The position numbers and the translations under genes were made by a program. Below, in pieces: positions 6,698 to 6,902 of a DNA stretch of 10,882 nt (the first letter of the stretch is position 1; each line of letters opens with the position of its first letter). Location of the stretch: the IMG/VR virus record IMGVR_UViG_2681813320_000023; one strand, given 5' to 3'. The stretch is from a virus. Lineage: Duplodnaviria; Heunggongvirae; Uroviricota; Caudoviricetes. Under the pieces are notes generated by a model. It saw only the letters and a program-made list of their open reading frames with translations. It ran no database searches and was not told the origin of the DNA.

Positions 6698-6739
6698 AAA
6701 AAAGCCCGATAAGTACAGGAGGCATCTTATCGGGCTTTT
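6698..6739. terminator. Second, probably bidirectional terminator (AAAAAA-GCCCGATAAG-12 nt loop-CTTATCGGGC-TTTT)
   Basis: 10-bp perfect stem flanked by an A-run upstream and a T-run downstream, so it can act on either strand. Confidence 0.45.
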
Positions 6740-6818
6740 GCATATGAGGTTTTTTTTGGTGCACTGACACACATGATCGGGATCATCATTTCATAATTTG
6801 CAACACAACTCAACATCA

Positions 6819-6867
6819 TTGCATAAAATGCAATAATGATTATAATCAGATCTGGATGAACATCCAG
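6819..6867 (+). promoter_or_regulatory. Candidate promoter of the head/packaging operon: TTGCAT (6819-6824) - 16 bp - TATAAT (6841-6846), with inverted repeats TTGCAT-AAA-ATGCAA over the -35 and CTGGATG-AA-CATCCAG (6852-6867) just downstream
   Basis: A perfect -10 hexamer sits inside the 12-bp palindrome TGATTATAATCA (6837-6848). Two further inverted repeats flank it. The first ORF of the operon starts 36 bp downstream. Confidence 0.45.
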
Positions 6868-6902
6868 TTATGATTTTTTAAGTCAAAGAGGAATTTCTTA
6901 CT

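Follow-up and report, generated by a model that had tools for sequence, protein, structure and literature searches.

The head module of EcCICFT073-type islands and its closest described relatives

EcCICFT073 is the prototype of the phage-inducible chromosomal islands (PICIs) of Gram-negative bacteria (PMC6092414, PMC6739421). Its head module, c1498-c1501, includes homologues of a capsid protein (c1499) and of a decoration protein (c1500), with a lambda-type cos downstream, and its Rpp is encoded by c1503. The homologues of lambda E and D are dispensable for transfer and interference (PMC6092414). Published work on these islands concerns induction by AlpA and the hijacking of packaging by Rpp, and leaves the expression and role of the capsid and decoration homologues unexplained. 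The literature we searched yielded no description of the promoter or regulation of the head module of EcCICFT073, and no account of its control by LexA. Here we analyse a stretch of 10,882 nucleotides (IMG/VR record IMGVR_UViG_2681813320_000023, hereafter the window), and in particular its positions 6698-6902, which precede the head genes. By its gene content, the window is an EcCICFT073-type PICI, a satellite of an E. coli phage. It has the gene order of EcCICFT073 and the same sequence elements upstream of the head genes, but other alleles of integrase, primase, and perC. The closest relative of the island uses a different attachment site from EcCICFT073, next to tRNA-Pro.

The other close parallel comes from the pathogenicity islands of Staphylococcus aureus (SaPIs), where operon I, devoted to packaging, is controlled by LexA according to the accounts of Ubeda 2007 given in PMC6092414 and PMC6739421. 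Operon I is, as proposed here for the head module, a packaging or capsid module with its own promoter, set apart from the circuit of the master regulator and placed under the SOS repressor. The window differs from it in having a Gram-negative host, in belonging to an unrelated island lineage, and in carrying an E. coli-type CTG-N10-CAG box; its LexA control is a prediction of this study. SOS-box promoters and satellite packaging operons under LexA are thus known kinds, but such control looks undescribed in the EcCICFT073-type family.

We lean towards the view that positions 6698-6902 make up a control cassette, complete in itself, for the lambda E/D-like head module of EcCICFT073-type PICIs. 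The best-supported reading of its parts (Table 1), in which we have moderate confidence, is a LexA-controlled sigma-70 promoter with a two-site operator and a weak back-to-back promoter whose transcript would end at a terminator. The rightward promoter, P(+), would start transcription of the head module near 6853, as judged from its -10 element (TTGCAT-16-TATAAT). The palindrome CTGGATGAACATCCAG across this start would be an operator for LexA, the SOS repressor of the host; the head module would be off in undamaged cells and released upon RecA-stimulated cleavage of LexA, a signal by which lambdoid helper prophages are induced as well. Two dyads, O1 over the -35 element and spacer of P(+) and O2 30 bp upstream, would bind a putative dimeric regulator. 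O2 lies inside P(-), a weaker candidate promoter back to back with P(+), and the P(-) transcript of about 80 nt would be stopped by the hairpin T2, which would also insulate the upstream replication/perC module.

Conservation of the control core

We collected relatives of the region from several sources: 80 IMG/VR loci found through the capsid protein, 39 metagenome loci found with a degenerate pattern of the core, 6 E. coli chromosomal loci, and loci of Salmonella and Pluralibacter that were reached via proteins homologous to the 68-aa product of the first head gene. They gave 79 distinct segments of 280 nt (variants) and nine subfamily representatives. Among 5426 complete E. coli genomes, 730 match the 350 nt around the region and 619 match its 211-nt core.

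The most distant subfamilies are those of Salmonella, Pluralibacter, and the E9-type elements of E. coli. In these three, identity to the window is 73-82% over a 62-nt core (6788-6849), 66-71% over the 68-aa gene, and 66-69% over the capsid gene. It is only 50-54%, near random, in the 45 nt to the left of the core. The invariant blocks of the alignments are O2 (6788-6804), TCAA (6811-6814), O1 (6818-6834), TTATAATCA (6840-6848), CTG (6852-6854), and a T-run with the ribosome-binding site. The case for the cassette rests on position and conservation, and most of the single sequence matches are unremarkable.

Every element that an earlier reading of these letters (the original prediction) had listed for 6698-6902 is present at the coordinates given, on inspection of the sequence and with a repeat finder. 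It had named TTGCAT-16-TATAAT as the promoter of the head operon, and the relatives bear this out: in each of the nine subfamily representatives, TTGCAN-16-TA(T/A)AAT comes out as the top plus-strand candidate, with its position unchanged. The TATAAT hexamer is kept in 57 of the 61 distinct upstream regions (TAAAAT in three, TGTAAT in one), and the equivalent in EcCICFT073 is TTGCTC-16-TATAAT. The -10 of P(+) matches the consensus at 6 of 6 positions, and its spacer falls within the 16-18 nt accepted for sigma-70. The -35, TTGCAT, has just 3 of its 6 positions in common with TTGACA, and for this reason a general promoter scan omits P(+). Two terminators, T1 and T2, lie between P(+) and the upstream genes, and the head module therefore needs a promoter of its own. 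P(+) is very likely used as a promoter.

The tight regulation that the original prediction had suggested for this promoter also agrees with the alignments, which place three conserved operator-like dyads on or beside P(+). That prediction had described the promoter as boxed by two inverted repeats. Both repeats exist, but they are not equivalent elements: one is LexA-like, and the other, TTGCAT-AAA-ATGCAA at 6819-6833, forms the core of O1, one of the two O dyads.

A predicted LexA-type box at the probable start of the head transcript

The inverted repeat CTGGATG-AA-CATCCAG (CTGGATGAACATCCAG) has the dyad of the E. coli LexA box. Its left end lies 6 nt past the -10, and it would cover the predicted start of P(+) at about 6853. 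We scored it with a symmetrised matrix derived from 18 boxes published for E. coli (PMC3009722, Table 4). The site at 6850-6869 reaches 16.1 bits, and the known boxes range from 13.2 to 28.2 bits (polB 13.2, dinB 16.3, ruvA 20.3). In shuffled windows the best LexA-like site averages 9.5 bits, and it attains at least 16.1 bits in 10 of 500 shuffles. The closest published boxes are those of ruvA (CGCTGGATATCTATCCAGCA), with the same arms CTGGAT...ATCCAG, and cho (CACTGGATAGATAACCAGCA), with the arms CTGG...CCAG (PMC3009722, Table 4). Like the window's box, both have a 16-bp core with an A/T-rich centre; they lie on a promoter, as the window's box would if P(+) is used. A difference is the centre, which is GAAC or AAAC here and not ATCT, and the predicted box has flanks (AT...TT) that are poorer than TA...TA.

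The box is kept in 70 of the 79 variants (CTG and CAG present, 16-22 bits), most of which have the better flanks AACTGG...CCAGTT. Its variation sits in the centre (GAAC, AAAC, AAAT, GTTC) or moves the site towards the LexA consensus. Three variants have CATACAG, which breaks a G-C pair of the potential hairpin and raises the LexA score to 21.6 bits. This pattern favours a protein site over an RNA hairpin. In Pluralibacter the box lies 12 nt further downstream and retains CTGGA-N6-TCCAG. In CFT073, O157 PV15-279, Pluralibacter, and Salmonella, no other LexA-like site of the entire island scores as well as the head-module box. In the island Sp7 of O157 Sakai, which has another head module, the HK97-type arm contains no LexA-like site above 11 bits. 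From these comparisons, binding of LexA to 6850-6869 is probable, and the sequence points to the host SOS repressor as the control of P(+), instead of to a helper-dependent late promoter.

The same repeat might act as RNA, either as a 5' stem-loop stabilising the head mRNA or, together with the T-run behind it, as a promoter-proximal terminator that RNA polymerase would pass only after modification by an antiterminator resembling AlpA or the Q protein of a helper. A terminator scan does list CTGGATGAACATCCAG as terminator-like (6 pairs, then TTATGATTTT), the Pluralibacter hairpin is directly followed by TTTTTT, and across the family the loops vary while the arms stay. The AlpA of Pseudomonas is a Q-like antiterminator. 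In EcCICFT073-type islands AlpA is the master activator (PMC6092414). We nevertheless regard an RNA role as unlikely. The predicted start near 6853 would fall inside the left arm and leave a stem of only 5 bp, and the whole leader folds no better than shuffled sequences (z = -0.9). Compensatory changes are absent, and the CATACAG variants lose a pair while gaining in LexA match. The -10-like TATGAT at 6869-6874, which a sigma-dependent pause would require, is TGTGAT or TCTGAT in several subfamilies, and the E9-type elements lack the hairpin.

Two further LexA-like sites lie in the interval between int and alpA, TACTGGATATGCGAACAGAT at 1247-1266 (13.4 bits) and TACTGGTTTTTTATACACTA at 1358-1377 (19.0 bits). 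The latter is conserved in CFT073, O157 PV15-279, and Sakai Sp7. Three LexA-like sites of at least 13.4 bits in one window occur in 0 of 500 shuffles.

Two dyads as candidate operators

O1 is a perfect dyad, ATTGCA-N5-TGCAAT, and O2, exactly 30 bp upstream, is a second copy of it with two mismatches. No stretch of the alignments varies less than O2. All subfamilies, from E. coli to Pluralibacter, keep the half-sites TTGC(A/G) and TG(C/A)AA, and in Salmonella O2 is a perfect dyad of a variant half-site, ATTTCA-N5-TGAAAT. Perfect dyads with arms of 6-7 nt are expected about once per 10 kb, and the O1-type pattern occurs three times in the window against 1.2 expected. A search for further copies of O1 and O2 in the rest of the window gave only a chance-level match at 2068-2084. 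The two dyads are probably operators for a protein. Resemblances to a Fur box and to a sigma-54 promoter were dropped on inspection by eye because key positions are missing.

The arrangement recalls the right operator region of phage lambda, where the back-to-back divergent promoters PR and PRM share the repeated 17-bp operators OR1-3. In both cases outward-facing promoters (candidate promoters in the cassette) lie a few bp apart and each is overlapped by a 17-bp dyad. The cassette has only two sites, 30 bp apart, and its predicted leftward product is a short non-coding RNA, not a repressor gene.

One candidate for the binding protein is the host nucleoside regulator CytR, which would place the head promoter under CytR and CRP, besides or instead of a regulator encoded by the island. 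CytR operators are repeats of the octamer GTTGCATT/AATGCAAC, with TTGCA and TGCAA pentamers and flexible spacing (PMC3454398), and O1 and O2 have four half-sites of the TTGCA/TGCAA type as well as near-octamers. The sequence AATGCAAC, a perfect octamer in O2 of Pluralibacter, and ATTGCAT resemble the octamer GTTGCATT, and TGCAAC (6799-6804)-N13-ATTGCAT (6818-6824) fits the pattern TGCAAC-N10-13-GTTRCATT (PMC3454398). Half-sites that stay constant across genera would also suit a conserved host factor. However, the order of the half-sites within each dyad is everted (TTGCA...TGCAA) relative to the classical TGCAA-N2-3-TTGCA. CytR would also need adjacent CRP sites, within about 5 bp, and no credible ones flank the dyads: the CRP-like matches at 6758-6773 and 6835-6850 reach only 7 of 10 positions and occur at chance frequency (46 found, 40 expected). 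Since no biological rationale for CytR control is known either, we judge this identification improbable.

Alternatively, O1 and O2 could be autoregulatory operators of the 68-aa protein, as a small DNA-binding protein of the ribbon-helix-helix type. This product (PHROG 3255) belongs to an orphan family with 31 clusters in 5.8 billion proteins and 14 matches among 1.8 billion representatives. All members come from Enterobacteriaceae-like contexts and are always encoded just upstream of an E-like capsid gene. Autoregulation would fit the constant linkage of the gene to the cassette, although this linkage partly reflects how the relatives were collected. The AlphaFold model is a strand-helix-helix (pLDDT, the model's confidence score, 74.6), and one of 12 homologues faintly matches the BrnA antitoxin family (E = 0.017), which we take to be ribbon-helix-helix proteins. 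The query itself belongs to no Pfam family, resembles no PDB structure (best E = 1.9), and has no remote homologues among the 1.8 billion representatives. Moreover, identity of the protein falls to 60-66%, with the half-sites unchanged. We therefore hold autoregulation by this protein to be rather unlikely.

T2 and possible transcription towards the left

T2 has 14-nt perfect arms, which is beyond chance, with six A before the stem (6698-6703), a 10-bp core stem, and four T after it (6736-6739). It reads as an intrinsic terminator on both strands, whose U-tract counts 6 U for a minus-strand RNA and 4 U for a plus-strand one. In all 79 variants the A-run (5-9) exceeds the T-run (3-5), in agreement with the earlier proposal that this hairpin stops a leftward transcript. 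The stems differ by subfamily (GCCCGATAAG, ATCCCCCGG, GCCCGCT, ACCCCCA), each self-complementary. T1, conserved in most relatives, forms the left border of the cassette and stands outside the finding itself. It already ends the rightward unit, and T2 is thus apparently kept mainly to stop transcription from the right. Hence T2, formally bidirectional, appears to be built mainly for leftward termination.

The original prediction suggested as the source of such transcription the palindrome TGATTATAATCA around the -10, which puts a TATAAT on the minus strand as well (6844 to 6839), and gave the transcript a span of roughly 6845-6740. On this reading there would be a single symmetric, bidirectional promoter with a leftward transcript of about 105-130 nt (from about 6832-6845 to 6700-6740). 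Most E. coli variants retain the palindrome, which in many of them reaches 14 bp, and T2 has the matching orientation. The relatives speak against it. The minus-strand -35 would be CTGGAT (2 of 6), and the resulting promoter takes 24th place in the window. Salmonella (GGTTTATAATCA) and E9-type elements (TGATTAAAATCA) have an imperfect palindrome, in which the minus-strand hexamer becomes TATAAA (no T at -7) and TTTAAT (no A at -11), respectively, while the leftward terminator is kept. The two -10 hexamers are therefore not conserved together, as they should be in a symmetric bidirectional promoter. A gap of 21 bp would separate the two predicted starts; a distance of 18 bp is said to be typical of such promoters. 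We consider a bidirectional promoter at this palindrome unlikely.

The conserved candidate is P(-), which would shift the transcript to about 6778 to 6697. Each of the nine subfamily representatives has it in the equivalent place, and it explains the invariant TCAA at 6811-6814. In distant types it reads TTGACT-17-AATGAT (E9, 10.7 bits), TTGATC-17-AATAAT (Salmonella, 10.9 bits), and TTGACA-17-AATTAT (Pluralibacter, 12.8 bits). O2 in the P(-) spacer mirrors O1 in P(+). Predicted RNAs with the same layout, of 65-94 nt, can be drawn in all nine subfamilies. That of the window folds at -25.2 kcal/mol (z = -4.0), mostly owing to the terminator. It has no match in Rfam 15, where the sole hit was 28.6 bits to a Streptococcus small RNA model with a gathering score of 208. 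A minus-strand peptide of 31 codons was rejected: it lacks a Shine-Dalgarno sequence, and changes in the length of the T-run in relatives break its frame. Overall, the existence of the leftward RNA is possible but doubtful.

If made, the RNA could have a function of its own. An exposed CCUC(A) motif is found in five of six subfamilies, in a single-stranded stretch beside the terminator or in its loop. The T2 loop (6714-6725 in the window) includes a plus-strand GAGG, read as CCUC from the other strand, in elements of the window, O157, Nissle, E9, and Pluralibacter types, despite their different stems; the Salmonella loop lacks it. The cassette might then encode, between P(-) and T2, a satellite small RNA of about 65-95 nt, not recognised before, acting on ribosome-binding sites of satellite or helper messages, with RNA gene and head operon controlled together through a two-operator switch at O1/O2 and LexA as a second input. 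We think this arrangement unlikely.

Evidence that weighs against a LexA-controlled cassette

Several observations count against the combination of a LexA-controlled P(+), a two-site operator, and a weak P(-). By the sigma-70 weight matrix, P(+) ranks third in the window, yet its score is reached in 88 of 100 shuffles. The window has the weakest box variant of the family, at 16.1 bits, in which each half-site has G as its fourth letter where T is usual (as in ruvA and cho), and the E9-type elements (8 of the 79 variants) have no box at all. A LexA-like site with a higher score lies upstream of alpA at 1358-1377, with CAC for CAG. The alpA gene of EcCICFT073 was SOS-independent in reporter work (PMC6092414); this site is probably not functional, and a good matrix score is thus no guarantee of function. 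The comparisons with CytR half-sites and with the 68-aa protein did not identify a binder for O1 and O2. Finally, P(-) scores low in the main E. coli types (8.1 bits), and nowhere is the region less conserved than in the body of the RNA predicted from it.

The cassette travels with the head module

The gene upstream of the cassette varies among islands (perC, ssb, or a hypothetical gene), and genome matches start at position 1 of the window, at about 6668 (T1), or at 6698 (T2). In Nissle-type elements, T2 is the left limit of homology. A role of PerC as obligatory regulator was rejected, since in many islands that carry this cassette its place is taken by SSB or a hypothetical gene. Another comparison is with O157 Sakai Sp7 (CP-933C, the capsid-forming PICI, or cf-PICI, EcCIEDL933). 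Its left arm is common with the window-type islands through T1 and is followed by unrelated sequence, with an HK97-type head module and without T2, the dyads, the promoter, or the LexA-type box. Hence the whole set, from T2 through both dyads and P(+) to the second palindrome, travels with the E/D-type head module as one cassette. An identification of the island as CP-933C/Sp7 was likewise rejected, because Sp7 is a cf-PICI with a different head module and lacks the cassette. The Hfq-crosslinking and strand-specific RNA-seq data available for O157 concern Sp7/CP-933C and are for this reason not applicable here.

Outside chromosomal islands, the cassette is found in two E. coli plasmid records; no phage of the GenBank phage collection carries it, and contigs representing one genome per species gave no match.

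Mosaic joints fall exactly at terminators, in the window (6669-6698) and in two other loci (L135, 2400-2440; L002, 8990-9030). Sakai Sp7 and the island of O157 PV15-279 occupy the same attachment site and have integrase, ssb, pchE, and T1 in common; after T1, the head module is of HK97 type in the former and of lambda E/D type in the latter.

Gene content of the island

Every substantial gene of the window is on the plus strand. EcCICFT073-type PICIs are about 10-11 kb long, and the window carries the features by which we recognised them: int, alpA, pri-rep with an adjoining iteron origin, capsid and decoration homologues, a Nu1-like rpp, and a lambda-type cos (Table 1).

Table 1. Positions of the cassette elements and of the other features in the window
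Feature	Position	Strand	Description
Tyrosine integrase	1-1218	+	
AlpA	1593-1781	+	Pfam E = 5e-18
C4-type antisense RNA with target boxes	3003-3207	+	Rfam RF01695, 72.6 bits
DUF4222/RgdR-like protein	3749-4048	+	
D5-type primase-helicase	4030-5862	+	
Iteron field	5870-6100	both	ACTGTTCACC/GGTGAACAGT, about 11 copies of 10 nt, just 3' of the primase gene
83-aa protein and PerC-family protein	6391-6663	+	
T1, intrinsic terminator of the upstream (perC) unit	6669-6692	+	Stem AGCCGGAG/TCCGGCT, then TTTTTTG; from a terminator scan
Predicted leftward non-coding RNA, about 80 nt	6697-6778	-	Deduced from P(-) and T2
T2, hairpin	6698-6739	-	GCCCGATAAG/CTTATCGGGC, arms 6700-6713 and 6726-6739
P(-), candidate sigma-70 promoter	6785-6813	-	-35 TTGAGT (6813 to 6808), 17-nt spacer, -10 AATGAT (6790 to 6785)
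O2, 17-bp dyad, putative operator	6788-6804		ATTTCA-N5-TGCAAC, within the spacer and -10 of P(-)
O1, perfect 17-bp dyad, putative operator	6818-6834		ATTGCA-N5-TGCAAT, overlaps the -35 and spacer of P(+)
P(+), predicted sigma-70 promoter of the head module	6819-6846	+	TTGCAT 6819-6824, 16-nt spacer, TATAAT 6841-6846
Palindrome around the -10	6837-6848		TGATTATAATCA; extends to ATGATTATAATCAT (14 bp) in many relatives
Predicted LexA-type SOS box	6850-6869		ATCTGGATGAACATCCAGTT; core CTGGATGAACATCCAG, CTG-N10-CAG, at 6852-6867
5' leader	6874-6905	+	Conserved T-run, Shine-Dalgarno AGAGGA 6887-6892, ATG 6903 of the 68-codon gene
68-aa protein, first head-module gene	6903-7109	+	
Lambda E-like major capsid protein	7109-8164	+	
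Lambda D-like decoration protein	8176-8511	+	
137-aa scaffold-like protein	8524-8937	+	Nu3/protease-C-like tail
Head-module terminator	8941-8962		
Lambda cosN	9000-9011		GGGCGGCGACCT, between the head-module terminator and the Nu1-like gene
Nu1-like (Rpp-type) protein	9145-9687	+	Followed by a 93-aa protein

The match to lambda cosN indicates that GGGCGGCGACCT is the cos site of the island, and the iterons presumably mark its replication origin. These assignments rule out 6698-6902 as the packaging site or the origin. The iterons also account for spurious matches to microRNA families in the same stretch. RgdR was excluded as a member of the head module, the RgdR of the O157 literature being the DUF4222 protein upstream of the primase (PMC3378721).

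The C4 RNA represents an RNA immunity system in the style of P1, P7, and P4 within a PICI. An a1/b1 target element (RF03163, 46.8 bits) lies 5' of it, overlapped by a sub-threshold match to isrK, and in relatives the locus adjoins Icd-like and Ash-like genes. In the 377-codon frame at 1839-2972, only the last ~60 residues match PHROGs annotated as phage "transcriptional repressor". The closest relative has this region split into a 221-aa hypothetical protein and a pseudogene of the Ash family, and the frame may be a fusion, or no real single gene.

Implications

EcCICFT073-type islands carry the cassette in about one eighth of the complete E. coli genomes, and the carriers include uropathogenic, Shiga-toxin-producing, and probiotic (Nissle) strains. 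If LexA control of the head module is true, satellites of Gram-negative and Gram-positive bacteria would have converged on wiring a packaging module to the SOS signal of the host. This wiring would be independent of the helper-specific induction circuit, and antibiotics that induce the SOS response would switch on the head genes even without a helper phage.

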